NCBI GenBank assembly: GCA_934148845.1
Contig: CAKPDH010000001.1
Coordinates: forward strand, 22,586-86,585
Source: an uncultured Bacilli bacterium
GTDB taxonomy: Bacteria; Bacillota_I; Bacilli_A; RF39; UBA660
Direction of reading: 5' to 3'
DNA length: 64,000 nt
The position numbers and the translations under genes were made by a program. The notes beneath the pieces are model-generated. The model was given only the letters and a program-made list of their open reading frames with translations. It was not told the DNA's origin and searched no databases. This document shows positions 9,655 to 50,740 of this stretch, piece by piece. Numbering within the stretch: position 1 is the first letter of the stretch; each line of letters opens with the position of its first letter.

Positions 9655-9769
9655 TATAATCAGTTTGTTGGAAAGATAGTACCGTAGACAGTAGGGGAGA
9701 AATCTTAATAATCCTACCGAGGAACTTGTTTATAAAGTTCAATTCCCTACGGTTAGTAGGGAATTTTTT
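9655..9769 (+). promoter_or_regulatory. rplJ (L10) leader with terminator/antiterminator architecture
   Basis: The hairpin TTCCCTAC-GGTTA-GTAGGGAA (9743-9763) followed by T6 sits 30 nt before rplJ. Upstream AGTAGGGGA (about 9690) could compete for the same CCCTAC arm. The location matches the L10-leader attenuator known in Firmicutes. Confidence 0.55.
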
Positions 9770-9798
9770 AATCGGTCTAAAAGATTAGGAGGTGTTTT

Positions 9799-42004: not shown

Positions 42005-42025
42005 AATTGTATAGGAGTATGATTT

Positions 42026-43537
42026 ATGATAAAAAAAATATTAAAAATAATTACAAATATAATATTTATAATATCTCTTTTAGTTTTATTTGTATCAATA
42101 TATATTAATCATTTTTTTGAGGGAGTATCTTTTGAATTAATATTATATTCAATAGTAAATTTTAAAGGTACTAGCATATCTGTAATACTTAGAGGACTTA
42201 TATTTATTTCTTTAATTTTTATATCTTTATTTATATTTATAAAATTAATTAAATTATTATTAAAAAAAATAAAAATATATGATAAAGCTTTAAAAATAAT
42301 TACTAAAATAAAATATATATTAAAAATTCTTATAATAGTTATATCTTTAATTATTTCATATAAATTATTAAAAATAGATGACTTTTACAATATGCTTAGA
42401 AACAGCACTTCTATATATGAAGATTATTATGTTGATCCAAGAAAAGTCGAAATAAAATTTCCAAAAGATAAGCAAAACTTAATATATATATATTTAGAAT
42501 CTATGGAAATGACAGGGGCTAGTAAAAAAAATGGCGGCTTTGTTTCTAGATCTTATATTCCAAATCTTGAAAGTCTTGCTCTAAATAATATTAATTTTAG
42601 TAATACATCAAATTTAGGAGGAGCAATTTCAATATATGGAACAAATTATACTTCTTCTTCTTTGGTCGCACAAACATCTGGTGTACAGTTAAAAGTGTCT
42701 ATTGGATGGGCTAAATATAAACATTTTGGTAAATCACTTCCAGGTGTTAAAAATCTTGGAGATATATTAGAAGAAAATGGATACAAAAACTATTTTATAA
42801 TGGGATCTGATGCTGATTATGGTGGTAGAAAAGATTATTTTAGACATGGTAATTATAAAATGCTTGATTACTACTGGGCAATAGATGAAAAAAAGATTGA
42901 TAAGGATTATTATGTATGGTGGGGATATGAAGATAAAAAATTGTTTGAATATGCTAAAGAACAATTAAAAACTATATCAAAAAATGACGAGCCATTTAAT
43001 TTTACAATGTTAACGGTAGATACTCATTTTACTGATGGATATATGGATGATTCTTGTAGTGTTCATTTTAATAAAAAATATGCTGATGCTATATATTGTT
43101 CTGATTCTAAAGTAGGAGAATTTATAGATTGGGTAAAAAAGCAGGATTTTTATAAGAATACAACAATAATAATAACAGGTGATCATTTAACAAAACAAAG
43201 ATTTTTTTATAGAGATTCAAATACATATAAAAGAACTATTTACAATTCAATAATTAATTCAAGAATTGAACCTATAAATGAAAAGAATAGATTATTTACA
43301 CCTTTTGATATGTTTCCAACAACTCTAGCAAGTATAGGAGTTACTATAGAAAATGATAGACTTGGACTTGGTACTAATCTTTTTTCAAACAAGAAAACAT
43401 TAGCTGAAGTAATGGGAATAGAAAAGTTAGAAAATGAACTTAAGAAAAAATCATTTTATTATGATAATGTTTTATTAAAAGATCATTATTATAAAATGCA
43501 AGAAGTGAGTGATACAAATGAAAAAAAATCTAATTAA
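42026..43537 (+). CDS. LtaS/MdoB-like sulfatase-family membrane protein (phosphoglycerol-transferase-like), tandem copy 1
   Basis: N-terminal TM block. IYIYLESME, TVDTHF, IIITGDHL, DRLGLGTNLFS. Confidence 0.7.
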   Translation: MIKKILKIITNIIFIISLLVLFVSIYINHFFEGVSFELILYSIVNFKGTSISVILRGLIFISLIFISLFIFIKLIKLLLKKIKIYDKALKIITKIKYILKILIIVISLIISYKLLKIDDFYNMLRNSTSIYEDYYVDPRKVEIKFPKDKQNLIYIYLESMEMTGASKKNGGFVSRSYIPNLESLALNNINFSNTSNLGGAISIYGTNYTSSSLVAQTSGVQLKVSIGWAKYKHFGKSLPGVKNLGDILEENGYKNYFIMGSDADYGGRKDYFRHGNYKMLDYYWAIDEKKIDKDYYVWWGYEDKKLFEYAKEQLKTISKNDEPFNFTMLTVDTHFTDGYMDDSCSVHFNKKYADAIYCSDSKVGEFIDWVKKQDFYKNTTIIITGDHLTKQRFFYRDSNTYKRTIYNSIINSRIEPINEKNRLFTPFDMFPTTLASIGVTIENDRLGLGTNLFSNKKTLAEVMGIEKLENELKKKSFYYDNVLLKDHYYKMQEVSDTNEKKSN

Positions 43538-45023
43538 AAAAATATTATTAGCTATTTTTATACTAATGTGCTCAACATTTATTTTAGGCTCATTATTTGT
43601 AAAAAAATTATTTCCAGATGTTGCTTTTGAAGAATTATATTTTTATTTAACTAACGGAGTAGAAAGTTCAGATAATAGTTTATTTATTTTAGGTTTAAAA
43701 AATTGTTTAATATTAATTATAATTTCTTCTATTATAATATATTTTATAATTGATAAGATGTATATAACAAATATTATACTTAAAAAAAAGAAAAATTTAT
43801 TAAAGATTTTTAAAATAGTATATTTAAATTTGTTTCTTATTTTAAGCTTATATATATTAGCGTATAATTTAAATTTCTTTAAATATTTAAAGGACCAAAA
43901 TTCTATATCTGAATTAATAGAAAAAAGATATGTTGATCCTAAGAAAGTAGATGTTAAATTTCCTCTTAAAAAAAATTTAATAATGATTTATGTTGAATCT
44001 TTAGAAACATCACTTTTTACAAAAGAACAGGGCGGATATTGGGACTATAGTGTTATAGGTGAGTTATATGATCTTTTAAATGATTCTGATTCAACTGTAT
44101 TTTATCAAAGTAATAAAGCCCAATCTATGGAAATGCTTGATACAAGTGCTTGGACTACAGCATCAGTAGTTGCTAATTCTTCAGGATTACCATTTAAAAT
44201 ACCTATAAAAAGAAATTCATATCACTCAAGTAATTTTATGGATGGTGCTTATACACTTGGAGATTTATTAAAAGATAATGGTTATTATAATGAATTAATA
44301 TCATCAGCTCGTACTTCTTTTGGTGGAATAAAAGAATATTTTAAACGACATGGAAATTTTAAAATAATAGATATAAATTCTTATGCTAATTTTGATTTAC
44401 AAATAACCAAAGATGATATGTGTAAATGGGGATTTAACGATAAGTTTTTATTTGATAGTGCAAAAAAAAGATTAAATGTTATAAAAAATATGGATAAGCC
44501 ATTTAATTTAGTACTTCAAACTATTGATACACATTATGTTGATGGATATATAGGAAATTATTCTGTTAATAAATATGATACTAGATATGAAAATGTATAT
44601 GCTACAGAATCTAAATTAATTGTTAATTTTATAAATTGGGTTAAGAAGCAAGATTTTTATAAAGATACTACTATAGTTATAGTAGGGGATCATTTATCTA
44701 TGCAAACATCATATTTTGAATCTAGAGGTGCTAATAAGAGATATGTATATAATTGTTATATAAATTCAGCAATAGAAAAATCTAATACAAGTAATAGAAT
44801 ATATACTGCACTTGATACATATCCTACTGTACTTTCTAGTATAGGAGCTATAGTAGATGGTGATAGACTTGGTCTTGGTACTAATTTATTTTCAGATAAA
44901 AAGACATTAGCAGAAGAATACGGATTTGATAAATTAAATAAAGAATTAAATAAAAAATCTGTGTTTTACAATAAAAAGATCTTAAAAAAAGATTATGATG
45001 ATATGATAAAAGAAAAAAACTAG
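43518..45023 (+). CDS. LtaS/MdoB-like sulfatase-family membrane protein, tandem copy 2
   Basis: Collinear with copy 1 (VDPKKVDVKFP, IMIYVESLE, TIDTHY, WVKKQDFYKDTTIVIVGDHL, DRLGLGTNLFSDKKTLAE). ATG 43518 preferred. Confidence 0.7.
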   Translation: MKKNLIKKILLAIFILMCSTFILGSLFVKKLFPDVAFEELYFYLTNGVESSDNSLFILGLKNCLILIIISSIIIYFIIDKMYITNIILKKKKNLLKIFKIVYLNLFLILSLYILAYNLNFFKYLKDQNSISELIEKRYVDPKKVDVKFPLKKNLIMIYVESLETSLFTKEQGGYWDYSVIGELYDLLNDSDSTVFYQSNKAQSMEMLDTSAWTTASVVANSSGLPFKIPIKRNSYHSSNFMDGAYTLGDLLKDNGYYNELISSARTSFGGIKEYFKRHGNFKIIDINSYANFDLQITKDDMCKWGFNDKFLFDSAKKRLNVIKNMDKPFNLVLQTIDTHYVDGYIGNYSVNKYDTRYENVYATESKLIVNFINWVKKQDFYKDTTIVIVGDHLSMQTSYFESRGANKRYVYNCYINSAIEKSNTSNRIYTALDTYPTVLSSIGAIVDGDRLGLGTNLFSDKKTLAEEYGFDKLNKELNKKSVFYNKKILKKDYDDMIKEKN

Positions 45024-47721: not shown

Positions 47722-47778
47722 GATTTTAAAAGGAAATATATAAAACGTATGGAATGATATTAATGAGGAGGTGATAAT

Positions 47779-49857
47779 ATTAAAAAATATCCATTTGTTT
47801 TGCAAGATGAATCTAAGGATTGTGGAGTTGCATGTCTTATGATGATAATTAAATATTATAAAGGTTACATAAATAAAAATGAATTACAAGATTTAACTAA
47901 GACAACTAAAGAAGGAACGACCGCATATAATTTAAAATTAGCATTAACTAATATTGGATTTAGTGTTAAAGGTGTTTCTTGTAAATTAGAAGATATTACT
48001 TGTAATAATATAATTTTACCCTGTATTGCAAATGTAACAATAAATAAGCTATATAAACATTTTGTTGTTATATATGAAATAAATTTTAAACACAAATATA
48101 TTATAGTAGCAGATCCTAAAGATAAGATTAAAAAAATAAAATATGAAGATTTTGATAAAATATTTAACGATGTATTATTAATATTCTTTCCAATAAAAAA
48201 ATTGCCAATAAATAAAAATATATCAAAACTTAATTTTTATAAAACATTAATCACACCCCATAAAAAAGAATTAATTAATATAATAATTTTATCTTTATTT
48301 GTAACTATTTTTTCAATTATAAATTCTTTTTATACACAAAATATGATTGATTCAATAAATAGTTATTCAATGTATTCTATAACTTATTTCTTTATTATAT
48401 TTTTAATTATTAATATTCTAAAAATTATAACAGAATATTTTAGAAATATTTCATTAACTTATATAAATCAAAAATTAGATCTTTTACTAACATTAGATAT
48501 TTTTAATAAAATTATCAAACTTCCTTATCACTATTACAAAAACAGAACAACAGGAGATATTGTATCTAGAGTAAATGATTTAGAAAATATTAGAAATATA
48601 ATTAGTAAAGTCGCGCTTTCTATATTTATAGATCTTCCACTTACTGTAATAGCTTTAATAGCAATCTTTATAATAAATAAAACATTGTTTATTATAGGAA
48701 TTATTATTTTGATTTTATATTATTTAATAATTATATTATTTAGAAGTACATTTAATGAATATATAATGAATTTAAAAATTAAAAATAGTGATACACTTTC
48801 ATATATGATAGAATCTATTAATAATTTCGAAAGTATAAAAGGAATACATATGGAAGATATTATATGTAATAAGCTTGAATGTAAATATGTATCATATTTA
48901 ACTAAATTAATAAAATACCAAAAACTATATTTTATTAAAGAATTATTAAAAGATTTAATAAATAATATAGGCTTTATTATTATAATATTTATTGGTTGCA
49001 TACTTGTTATAAATAATAAAATTAGTTTAGGTGGTTTATTTACATTTACGTCACTTTTATCATATTTTTTAGAACCAATTAAAAATATTATTAATTTAGA
49101 TACTAATATAAAGGATGCTAATATATCTTTAAAAAGATTACTTGAACTTATGGGTTATAGTAAAAAAGAAGATGGAATTGTAAATAAATTTACAAATGGA
49201 GACATTATTATTAGAAATTTAAATTATACTTTTGATGATAGAAACTATATTTTAAAAAAGATTAATTTACATATATTAAATAAATCTAAAATTATGATAA
49301 TAGGTAAAAGTGGAAGTGGAAAAAGTACATTATTTAAAATATTAATGAAATATTATAAAGTAAAAAATAATAAAATTTTTATTGGAGGTATAGATTTAAA
49401 TAAATATACAAAAAGTGCAATAAATAATAATATTATATATATAAGTCAAAATGAGACTTTATTTACAGATACATTAATTAATAATGTTAATTTTAATAAT
49501 AGTGATAGTTCTAAGGTTATAGATGTATTTAAAATGTGCTACGTTGATTCTATCTTTGACAAAAATTTAGGATATAATATTTTAATAGAAGAGGGCGGTT
49601 TTAATTTATCTGGAGGTGAAAAGCAAAGAGTTGTACTTGCAAGATCTCTATTACAACCGTTTAATATATTAATAATAGATGAGGCTTTAAATCAAGTAGA
49701 CATAAAAATGGAAAGGAAAATATTAAAAAATGTTTTTAATTATTTTAAAGATAAAACAATTATTGTAATATCTCATAGATTAGATAATGCAGATTTGTTT
49801 GATAAGCTAATAAAAATAGAAAATAAAATAGCAAAAGAGGTAATAATAAATGGATAG
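47779..49857 (+). CDS. Bacteriocin-processing ABC exporter with N-terminal C39 peptidase domain (ComA/LagD type); probable ATT start
   Basis: (I/M)KKYPFVLQDESKDCGVACLMMIIKYYKG (catalytic Cys), HFVVIYEI (His), six TM. Walker A GKSGSGKST, signature LSGGEKQRVVLAR, Walker B ILIIDEA. The conserved KYPFVLQ is encoded upstream of the first canonical start (TTG 47800). Confidence 0.85.
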   Translation: MKKYPFVLQDESKDCGVACLMMIIKYYKGYINKNELQDLTKTTKEGTTAYNLKLALTNIGFSVKGVSCKLEDITCNNIILPCIANVTINKLYKHFVVIYEINFKHKYIIVADPKDKIKKIKYEDFDKIFNDVLLIFFPIKKLPINKNISKLNFYKTLITPHKKELINIIILSLFVTIFSIINSFYTQNMIDSINSYSMYSITYFFIIFLIINILKIITEYFRNISLTYINQKLDLLLTLDIFNKIIKLPYHYYKNRTTGDIVSRVNDLENIRNIISKVALSIFIDLPLTVIALIAIFIINKTLFIIGIIILILYYLIIILFRSTFNEYIMNLKIKNSDTLSYMIESINNFESIKGIHMEDIICNKLECKYVSYLTKLIKYQKLYFIKELLKDLINNIGFIIIIFIGCILVINNKISLGGLFTFTSLLSYFLEPIKNIINLDTNIKDANISLKRLLELMGYSKKEDGIVNKFTNGDIIIRNLNYTFDDRNYILKKINLHILNKSKIMIIGKSGSGKSTLFKILMKYYKVKNNKIFIGGIDLNKYTKSAINNNIIYISQNETLFTDTLINNVNFNNSDSSKVIDVFKMCYVDSIFDKNLGYNILIEEGGFNLSGGEKQRVVLARSLLQPFNILIIDEALNQVDIKMERKILKNVFNYFKDKTIIVISHRLDNADLFDKLIKIENKIAKEVIING

Positions 49858-50272
49858 TATAGATATTTATAATAATAAAGCTTGTATAATTGAAAATAAA
49901 TATATATACTCTAAATATTTTGTTATTATATTAATTATTATATTTATTTTATTAATTATATTTTCATTTATTCCTTTTAATATTTATAAGAATTATGTTG
50001 GTAGTGTTATTATAGAAAATAATACTTCGTATATTAAAATAGAAACAAATTTAAGTGATTTTCCTATAAATAAAAATAATAAATTATATATATTAAAAGA
50101 TAAGTATAATTATGAAATAATAAAAATAGAAAACAATAATGTTATTTTAAAAGTTAACTTAAAAGATAATATAAGAATTAATAATAATATTTTGCTTTTA
50201 AACATCTTAACTAATAGGACAACCTTATTTGATATTTTAAAATATAAATTAAAGAAAGGATTATGCATATGA
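49850..50272 (+). CDS. Small single-TM accessory protein of the bacteriocin exporter (140 aa)
   Basis: The ATG overlaps the ABC gene's 3' end by 8 nt. One N-terminal TM plus a beta-rich ectodomain. It occupies the slot of the HlyD/LcnD-type accessory protein but is about one third of that size. Confidence 0.55.
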   Translation: MDSIDIYNNKACIIENKYIYSKYFVIILIIIFILLIIFSFIPFNIYKNYVGSVIIENNTSYIKIETNLSDFPINKNNKLYILKDKYNYEIIKIENNNVILKVNLKDNIRINNNILLLNILTNRTTLFDILKYKLKKGLCI

Positions 50273-50409
50273 GGGAATTAGAAGATAAAAAATTAAACCT
50301 TGTTGTAGGTGGTGGATTTAATATTGGAATAGGTATAGGAATAGTAGCTGGAATTACTTTTTTAATAGGTGTAATTGACGGCATAGTAAGACCACTTAAA
50401 TGTAATTAG
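50269..50409 (+). CDS. Double-glycine-leader bacteriocin precursor A (46 aa; not in ORF track)
   Basis: Own translation: MRELEDKKLNLVVGG-GFNIGIGIGIVAGITFLIGVIDGIVRPLKCN. The ATG overlaps the upstream TGA (ATGA). Leader has hydrophobic residues at -4/-7/-12 and GG at -2/-1. Confidence 0.75.
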   Translation: MRELEDKKLNLVVGGGFNIGIGIGIVAGITFLIGVIDGIVRPLKCN

Positions 50410-50415
50410 GATTAT

Positions 50416-50583
50416 ATGAGAGAACTTAAGAATAACGAATTATATATGATCAAAGGTGGAGGGAGTATATCAGCAGCATTTTTAAACGGTATAGCTCGTT
50501 CTATATCGACAATTGTAGATTTAGGAAGAAGCCTTGGATCAGCAATAAGAAGACTAATAAATGGAACGCTTTGCCCAATTTAA
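50416..50583 (+). CDS. Double-glycine-leader bacteriocin precursor B (55 aa; not in ORF track)
   Basis: Own translation: MRELKNNELYMIKGG-GSISAAFLNGIARSISTIVDLGRSLGSAIRRLINGTLCPI. Leader fits LxxxELxxIxGG. It starts 7 nt after precursor A. Confidence 0.75.
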   Translation: MRELKNNELYMIKGGGSISAAFLNGIARSISTIVDLGRSLGSAIRRLINGTLCPI

Positions 50584-50599
50584 AACTAAAAAAATAGCT

Positions 50600-50740
50600 A
50601 TGTTAATACTATTAATAATATTAATTCCAATTATTTTACCAATATTAAATTATACTATGTCATTTTTATTTGAAATAGGAAGAATTATTGGTACATATAT
50701 TAGAATAATTGAAAGTGGGAGTATATGTATCATTGGTTAA
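50600..50740 (+). CDS. Small hydrophobic ORF (46 aa), candidate immunity protein (not in ORF track)
   Basis: Own translation: MLILLIILIPIILPILNYTMSFLFEIGRIIGTYIRIIESGSICIIG. It lies directly downstream of the two precursors. No obvious SD. Confidence 0.4.
   Translation: MLILLIILIPIILPILNYTMSFLFEIGRIIGTYIRIIESGSICIIG

Follow-up and report, generated by a model that had tools for sequence, protein, structure and literature searches.

What do two short genes with double-glycine leaders produce, and to what end, when they stand behind a peptidase-containing exporter in the genome of an uncultured Bacilli bacterium? The stretch of DNA under study (64,000 nucleotides of contig CAKPDH010000001.1, 25% G+C; 'the window' below) carries on its forward strand a cassette of five genes, which encode an ATP-binding cassette (ABC) exporter with a C39 peptidase domain, a small accessory membrane protein (ACC), the two precursor peptides PepA and PepB, and the product of a further short open reading frame (ORF), ORF3. 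Comparison with relatives and known systems suggests that the cassette is probably a two-peptide, class IIb-type bacteriocin-like system. The initial annotation had put forward a candidate class IIb-like two-peptide bacteriocin at this place, a proposal that we find supported. To our knowledge, almost nothing is known of competition or communication in such uncultured gut Bacilli, and the cassette offers a concrete product that can be synthesised, peptides of 31 and 40 residues, common to at least 80 species.

The two peptide genes had been placed at 50269-50409 and 50416-50583, in a gap of the ORF list, and both lie exactly there with the sequences claimed. PepA reads MRELEDKKLNLVVGG/GFNIGIGIGIVAGITFLIGVIDGIVRPLKCN and PepB reads MRELKNNELYMIKGG/GSISAAFLNGIARSISTIVDLGRSLGSAIRRLINGTLCPI (leader/mature peptide). 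Profiles of their orthologues matched only these two ORFs across the 64-kb window (E 3.9e-18 for PepA and 1.1e-19 for PepB), and public gene calls already included the exact sequences of PepA (55 contigs) and PepB (59 contigs). The same gap holds a third conserved gene, ORF3 (50561-50740), which the initial annotation overlooked. The PepA start overlaps the TGA stop of the ACC gene as ATGA, as had been read. An alternative in-frame ATG at 50263 lies 2 nt past an AGGA Shine-Dalgarno sequence and the ATG at 50269 lies 8 nt past it; the latter appears the better start because of this spacing and because orthologue leaders are 15 residues long.

Both leaders have 15 residues, with Gly-Gly at −2/−1 and hydrophobic residues at −4, −7 and −12, and the PepB leader has the typical Glu at −8. 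TIGR01847 (bacteriocin_sig) matches the leaders of orthologues, and the leader profiles of PepA and PepB align with each other at 96% probability (hhalign). The predicted cleavage site is uncertain by one residue, both peptides reading GG/G around it. Mature PepA is very hydrophobic (grand average of hydropathy 1.36), with nested GxxxG motifs and a C-terminal RPLKCN, and mature PepB is amphipathic and cationic (4 Arg and 1 Asp, net charge +3), ending in a Cys followed by two final residues. Each mature peptide of the window has exactly one Cys, close to its C terminus. Direct reading bore out the initial description of the hydrophobic and Gly-Gly leader positions, the nested GxxxG motifs of PepA, the Arg and Asp counts of PepB and the single Cys of each peptide. 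No homology between mature PepA and mature PepB was detectable by hhalign. PepA and PepB share a reading frame in the window, with a TAG and two codons between them, and a 101-residue protein of a more divergent relative (P0285; …FVIGFLSGLVRPYPC…HGG…DLGRSFGSAFRR…C) is an in-frame PepA-like/PepB-like fusion or read-through.

A genome scan found a relative in 152 species-representative genomes, from which we retrieved 80 loci, the base of all counts out of 80 below. A set of 40 PepA homologues came from a protein collection, with 41 sequences entering alignments and model tests, and a global search for PepB at E ≤ 1e-3 covered 1.84 billion proteins. That search yielded 183 representatives, making PepB a small family. 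The C-terminal half of PepA is nearly invariant (AG[IV]xF[LI]IGVIDG[IFY][VI]RPLKCN): G34, D37, G38, L43 and K44 do not vary in the 41 sequences, C45 is conserved in at least 90%, and the GxxxG motif formed by G34xxxG38 (GVIDG) is invariant. PepB has an invariant core, DLGRSLGSAIRR, which holds a GxxxG; the wider core [DE][LIV]GRSLG[ST]AIRR is nearly invariant, its GxxxG (G37xxxG41, GRSLG) is invariant or at least 90% conserved, and Cys53 is invariant.

The paired cysteines that the initial annotation had pointed out are conserved across orthologues. All 79 PepA orthologues, gathered with a pattern that does not require it, have a Cys within their six C-terminal residues, as do all 71 PepB orthologues and 145 of the 150 global PepB relatives; exactly one Cys is present in 65 of 71 mature PepA sequences and in 70 of 71 mature PepB sequences. 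The only PepA variants without Cys, P0003 and P0004, end in ...DGLIKLK, and were rejected as natural Cys-less alleles, the genes being broken at a junction with foreign DNA. A same-species contig (L087, Logan SRR29133710, 3100-4900) is identical to the window up to PepA codon 38 (GTAATTGACGG) and continues as unrelated DNA with a ParB_N-domain gene, PepB and ORF3 being absent there; P0004 shows the same. This junction is likely a mobile-element insertion or rearrangement, or a chimeric assembly.

Curated models place many of the PepA relatives among bacteriocins. TIGR03949 (class IIb bacteriocin, lactobin A/cerein 7B family) matched 35 of the 41 PepA homologues, counted at E < 0.01, and PF10439 (Bacteriocin_IIc) matched 29 of 41. 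When ten homologues were scored individually, six lay above the curated TIGR03949 cut-off of 21.5 bits (22.9–36.7 bits). The alignment pairs PepA residues 2–38 with model positions 2–44 of 45 and takes in the leader and the Gly-rich, hydrophobic mature region to about residue 38; on this comparison the PepA family as a whole is related to TIGR03949 beyond the leader. The near-invariant PepA tail DG[IFY][VI]RPLKCN falls outside the model. Mature PepB matched no known family, bacteriocin models touching only the PepB leader, and among solved structures we found only leader-level, non-significant matches. The initial annotation recognised neither mature peptide as a named bacteriocin, and the window sequences indeed match no named family. 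Our literature search found nothing on the PepA/PepB family, on RF39-type bacteriocins or on disulfide-linked two-peptide bacteriocins.

The arrangement of the cassette is as constant as its peptides. One PepA gene and one PepB gene are adjacent on the same strand, PepB directly behind PepA, at all 80 loci, and a C39-ABC exporter homologue lies 5' of them at 79. In two species the usual PepA–PepB spacing of ~10–20 nt is widened to ~0.7–1.2 kb (L048, 2229-2924; L049, 6138-7360), something being inserted there between the two genes. An apparently truncated exporter at locus L006 was rejected as a sign of decay, as it reflects a scaffold gap filled with N. The rpsU gene was present in the retrieved flank of 56 of the 80 loci, several others being cut by contig ends. 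Exporter divergence correlated with that of the S21 and YqeY proteins (Spearman 0.49 and 0.47, p < 0.001; S21 against YqeY, 0.79). The cassette is probably ancestral to this gut Bacilli clade and inherited mostly vertically at a fixed site by rpsU. Searches with PepA and PepB by tblastn (E ≤ 1) found no copy among 72,556 plasmids and 50,697 phage records, and plasmid or phage carriage was rejected on this null result.

All carriers of the 80 loci are uncultured metagenome-assembled genomes whose labels read Bacilli, Bacillota, Tenericutes or Mollicutes. The samples behind them came from humans, rabbits, roe deer, chickens and digesters, and the clade is presumably that of the RF39-type gut Bacilli. 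Several co-assembly bins bear the doubtful title 'uncultured Muribaculaceae bacterium' (L023, L031, L034, L043, L046, L056, L058 and L059); these have PepA–PepB behind a related exporter and, in most, rpsU-yqeY just 3', like the Bacilli genomes, and their Muribaculaceae labels are probably wrong.

The exporter matched Peptidase_C39 (1.8e-31), ABC_membrane (6e-41) and ABC_tran (1.1e-23) in Pfam, and its catalytic motifs are kept across species: the Cys (QxxxxDCGxxC; QDESKDCGVAC in the window), the His (KHFVVIY) and the Asp ([AG]DP; ADP in the window). It scored 424 bits, under the cut-off of 523.85, against the general model TIGR01193 (bacteriocin_ABC, peptide cleavage/export ABC transporter), higher than its full-length score of 291 bits against NF045998 (Mbov_0121 family peptidase domain-containing ABC transporter), which has a cut-off of 500. 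A mechanical ORF begins at TTG 47800, and in-frame codons 5' of it encode the conserved N-terminal motif KKYPFVLQ; the conserved N terminus KKYPFVLQDESKDCG, catalytic Cys included, is encoded 5' of every ATG (47767-47842). A GGAGGTGA site lies at 47767-47774, just before ATT 47779. Because this N terminus, conserved in orthologues, is encoded 5' of the TTG and directly behind GGAGGTGA, ATT 47779 is probably the exporter start. Public gene calls use a later ATG, giving 672 residues, and would lose the catalytic Cys.

In domain architecture the exporter is like PCAT1 of Clostridium thermocellum, the structural model of peptidase-containing ABC transporters, whose substrate is CtA. The PepA profile gave weak matches to the precursors of CtA and carnobacteriocin B2 (E 0.39 and 0.58) that stayed within the leader region, and, unlike the exporters, the mature cargo peptides share no similarity. 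We know of no small accessory partner of PCAT1.

In an AlphaFold2 model of ACC (mean predicted local distance difference test score 84.7), a membrane helix at the N terminus leads into a small extracytoplasmic beta-barrel, and a further helix forms the C terminus. NF045999 (MAG1140 family) matched 12 of 26 ACC orthologues at E < 0.01 (best E 3.3e-9); the window ACC itself scored 12.6 bits (E 0.11), under the 35-bit cut-off, which points to a distant relationship rather than membership. ACC matched no Pfam family, and Foldseek against the PDB gave no match at E ≤ 1e-3, the best being generic small F1-ATPase beta-barrels (E ~0.06); the idea that ACC is a truncated HlyD/LcnD-type protein was rejected, there being neither a Pfam nor a significant PDB fold match. 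Since the exporter matches NF045998 and ACC orthologues match NF045999, the export module has distant relatives in cultured mycoplasmas. Like the mycoplasma NF045998/NF045999 pair, it combines an exporter with a small partner; unlike that pair, both window proteins score under the curated cut-offs. An ACC-profile search for mycoplasma relatives returned 98 hits, mostly metagenomic and all unnamed or 'hypothetical', with none labelled mycoplasma. In the literature searched, Mbov_0121 was named in two papers only, once each, one a secretome study and the other a study of comparative genomics.

Behind the peptides, ORF3 overlaps the 3' end of PepB by 23 nt in the window and by 13 nt in most species. 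Taking frames by position alone (those that run through the PepB stop and stay open for 90 nt or more past it), we found one at 68 of 80 loci, and the motif GxxxG[ST]xx[RH] occurred in 61 of these 68 compared with 3 of 7,927 other frames of 30–90 residues; on this re-test, selection bias was rejected as the source of the motif. ORF3 was recognised in 61–65 of the 80 loci. It has a basic N terminus and a hydrophobic segment of 19 residues, with a median hydropathy of 2.66, behind which ~24 residues form a C-terminal tail. The N flank carries a charge of +3 and the C flank +1, with N exceeding C in 38 of 52 sequences, which under the positive-inside rule predicts an N-in, C-out topology.

The ORF3 tail aligned with mature PepB over 30 columns by hhalign (probability 95.5%, E 1.5e-8), Cys against Cys; when the window was searched with profiles, that of PepB matched ORF3 at 2.2e-5 and that of ORF3 matched PepB at 3.5e-5. 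The two have a common core, hydrophobic-x-G-x-x-x-G-[ST]-x-I-R, and ORF3 has aromatic or aliphatic residues at the sites that are polar in PepB (Ser, Ala, second Arg, Asp). A Cys stands among the final six residues in 40 of 52 ORF3 sequences. By these alignments ORF3 is a membrane-anchored paralogue of mature PepB. No homology between PepA and ORF3 was found by hhalign, and ORF3 matched no Pfam or NCBIfam model. PepB and ORF3 of one genome resembled each other no more closely than did PepB and ORF3 of different genomes (permutation p 0.58); concerted evolution was rejected for this reason, and the duplication is old.

Class IIb bacteriocins, by the published criteria that we used for comparison, have adjacent peptide genes with an immunity gene in the operon, double-glycine leaders of 15–30 residues that are lost on export, a dedicated ABC transporter with leader peptidase as well as an accessory protein, and GxxxG (or AxxxA/SxxxS) motifs for helix packing in both mature peptides, and are explained by a helix-helix model (PMC2850506). 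The sequence-level features are present here: adjacent unrelated peptides, 15-residue leaders, a C39-ABC exporter with an accessory gene, and a GxxxG in both peptides. Two different peptide genes side by side, with 15-residue double-glycine leaders, are found as in lactococcin G, plantaricin EF/JK and carnobacteriocin XY, and, as in lactococcin G, a dedicated C39-ABC exporter and its accessory gene lie in what appears to be the same operon. As in class IIb, one mature peptide is hydrophobic and the other cationic and amphipathic, and a small membrane-protein gene, ORF3, lies directly behind them in the position of an immunity gene. Short immunity proteins are known from two-peptide systems: CbnZ has 42 residues and one membrane helix, N-in/C-out, and BrcI, EnkIaz and AbpIM have 53, 52 and 55 residues (PMC6957408). 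ORF3, at 59 residues, fits these in size and resembles CbnZ in its predicted single helix and topology; we regard it as a likely candidate immunity protein.

The cassette also departs from class IIb. Its candidate immunity protein is a paralogue of its second peptide, and a literature search, which was not exhaustive, found no published example of a class IIb immunity protein resembling its own peptide. With a single conserved Cys per peptide, no intramolecular disulfide is possible. ACC has 140 residues and a small beta-barrel, whereas the usual LcnD/ComB-type accessories are far larger, at about 450 residues. The window flanks hold no three-component regulatory genes, and the cassette is syntenic and slowly evolving across the clade instead of varying between strains. 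The PepB family, the anchored PepB-like ORF3, the paired single Cys, the small MAG1140-like accessory and the clade-wide synteny are new elements.

How might such a system work? The exporter would cut after Gly-Gly and export PepA and PepB, aided by the single-pass ACC. Outside the cell, the hydrophobic PepA helix may pack on the amphipathic, cationic PepB helix through GVIDG and GRSLG, and the helix pair could then penetrate the membrane and permeabilise target cells, possibly with a conserved membrane protein as its docking site; a receptor of this kind would account for how strongly the mature sequences are constrained. Killing activity is inferred for PepA and PepB. The two Cys may stabilise the pair through an intermolecular disulfide, which would fit the pattern of one Cys each and the aligned Cys of ORF3. 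ORF3 would expose the domain that resembles PepB at the outside of the producer membrane as a protective decoy, pairing with incoming PepA in the stead of PepB or filling the PepB docking site.

Several points weigh against a bacteriocin and have to be set beside these likenesses. Mature PepA evolves about as slowly as S21 and slower than its own leader: median identity to the window copy is 64% for mature PepA (82% over its last 17 residues) and 40% for its leader, 68% for S21 and 59% for YqeY, with 47.5% for mature PepB, 47% for the PepB leader, 45% for the exporter, 31% for ACC and 30% for ORF3. Bacteriocins usually have the opposite pattern of leader and mature conservation, and are usually variably present. 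At most of the 56 loci with rpsU, rpsU-yqeY lies immediately 3', even where the exporter is just 30–50% identical. ACC is not recognisable as an LcnD/HlyD-type protein. ORF3 is absent or unrecognisable in 12–15 of the 80 loci, mainly of one divergent subgroup, that keep PepA and PepB, so that it cannot be the sole self-protection everywhere. The producers live as anaerobes in the gut, a reducing habitat that disfavours disulfides. Finally, the window PepA, unlike the orthologues that matched TIGR03949 and PF10439, gave no hit to bacteriocin models, TIGR03949 included, even at E ≤ 10 and falls outside formal membership.

It is therefore worth asking whether the exported pair serves the producer instead. 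PepA and PepB could form a lineage-specific membrane or surface heterodimer that acts, for instance, in membrane homeostasis, in the control of ion leak, in contact between cells or in interaction with the host, with ORF3 possibly a third, anchored subunit. We hold this to be possible but rather unlikely. It would suit the fixed chromosomal position and single copy per genome in 80 of 80 species, an exporter divergence that follows the flanking housekeeping genes (rho about 0.48), a purifying selection on mature PepA equal to that on S21, and the lack of regulator genes in the window flanks. The exporter/ACC pair resembles an NCBIfam mycoplasma pair without known bacteriocin role, and PepB and ORF3, old paralogues, have kept their consensus sequences apart, as would be expected of subunits in a complex. 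On the other hand, PepA orthologues fall within a curated class IIb family, and the architecture is that of a bacteriocin operon point by point. The loss of ORF3 from some lineages with PepA and PepB is easier to reconcile with a protective accessory than with a subunit that the complex cannot do without, and in at least one strain the cassette is disrupted by foreign DNA, which argues that it is not essential.

The reading of the cassette as a two-peptide bacteriocin-like system could be carried further, to a Cys-linked PepA–PepB heterodimer with mimicry immunity, in which ORF3 captures PepA through the same GxxxG face and the aligned Cys, or blocks the PepB site. That more specific proposal, or alternatively a non-antagonistic core complex of three membrane proteins, is one that we advance tentatively, giving it perhaps one chance in four; either would exceed what is described for class IIb. 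The anchored, PepB-like ORF3 suggests a simple form of mimicry immunity, and the paired Cys suggest a disulfide-linked two-peptide bacteriocin, for neither of which did we find a published example. If the peptides do kill, a whole clade would share the cassette as a conserved 'public' weapon, and it would be a source of narrow-spectrum peptides against gut Firmicutes.

A different role for ORF3 seems improbable, namely that it is a third bacteriocin-like component, either a PepB-like peptide freed by signal-peptide cleavage or a membrane receptor or export chaperone. Its homology to mature PepB speaks for this, and the basic N terminus with its hydrophobic segment could in principle be a Sec-type signal, but no conserved small-residue cleavage motif follows that segment, which has the length and hydropathy of a membrane helix. 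The position and size of ORF3 suit the known short immunity proteins, and it is dispensable in some lineages.

We consider a role of either or both peptides as ComC/BlpC-type quorum-sensing pheromones, instead of toxins, very improbable. Pheromones use the same leader type and exporter class, and PepB does match ComC (PF03047), but weakly (12.2 bits against a cut-off of 20.4) and over residues 3–16 only, within the leader; the initial annotation had named clear homology to a pheromone family as grounds for abandoning the bacteriocin proposal, and we found none. No histidine kinase or response regulator gene was found in the window flanks or same-species loci, and mature peptides of 31 and 40 residues, hydrophobic or amphipathic and with GxxxG motifs, are unlike short unstructured pheromones, PepA being essentially a membrane helix. 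That the small ORFs are chance frames without product, as might be supposed from the frequency of short ORFs at this low G+C content and from the want of a curated model matching the window PepA, is effectively refuted by the conservation data: the three ORFs keep sequence, order, spacing and overlap in 61–80 species while the exporter is just 30–67% identical, the in-window profile matches reach E 1e-18 to 1e-20, and the Shine-Dalgarno sites are properly spaced.

Features of the cassette in the window.
Feature	Coordinates	Strand	Evidence and remarks
Peptidase-containing ABC exporter (PCAT): C39, six-helix transmembrane domain and ATP-binding domain	47779..49857	+	Pfam, motifs; probable start
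ACC, 140-aa accessory membrane protein	49850..50272	+	overlaps; ORF of 130-157 aa at same place in 56 loci
PepA precursor, 46 aa	50269..50409	+	leader 50269-50313, mature ~31 aa 50314-50406
PepB precursor, 55 aa	50416..50583	+	leader 50416-50460, mature ~40 aa 50461-50580
ORF3, 59 aa, candidate immunity protein	50561..50740	+	position, motif, PepB homology

All five genes overlap or nearly abut, the exporter stop and ACC start overlapping by 8 nt and PepA and PepB, on the same strand, being separated by 6 nt. The block 47779-50740 is probably one operon, co-transcription being suggested by these overlaps. A promoter scan was uninformative in this AT-rich DNA (48 sites, 47 expected), no terminator-like site was found near the cassette, and an Rfam scan found no RNA element near it; the sole Rfam family in the window at gathering threshold is a ribosomal protein L10 leader (RF00557, 73.3 bits) at 9664-9778 (+). 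Current profile libraries miss ORF3 and the window PepA, and gene callers often omit ORF3 and clip the catalytic N terminus of the exporter.

Two public entries equivalent to 49850-50281 (P0014 and P0015) have ACC read through its TGA as Trp (...LCIWGN, 143 residues), and genetic code 4 is evidently applied by some pipelines to contigs labelled 'Tenericutes'. Code 4 was ruled out for the window: read under code 11, the long (housekeeping) ORFs stay intact, and the orthologues of ACC share its end position. TGA ends 3 of the 53 long window ORFs.

On its 3' side the cassette is followed by rpsU (PF01165, 43 bits), yqeY, lysS and further housekeeping genes. Towards the 5' side, a sulfatase-domain membrane protein (PF00884) is encoded at 43509-45023 (+), and a region 43% identical to it lies directly 5', from ~42023; the two regions, at 42023-45023 (+), have the look of paralogues in tandem and are followed by U32 peptidase and GNAT genes, which flank the cassette in close relatives only.

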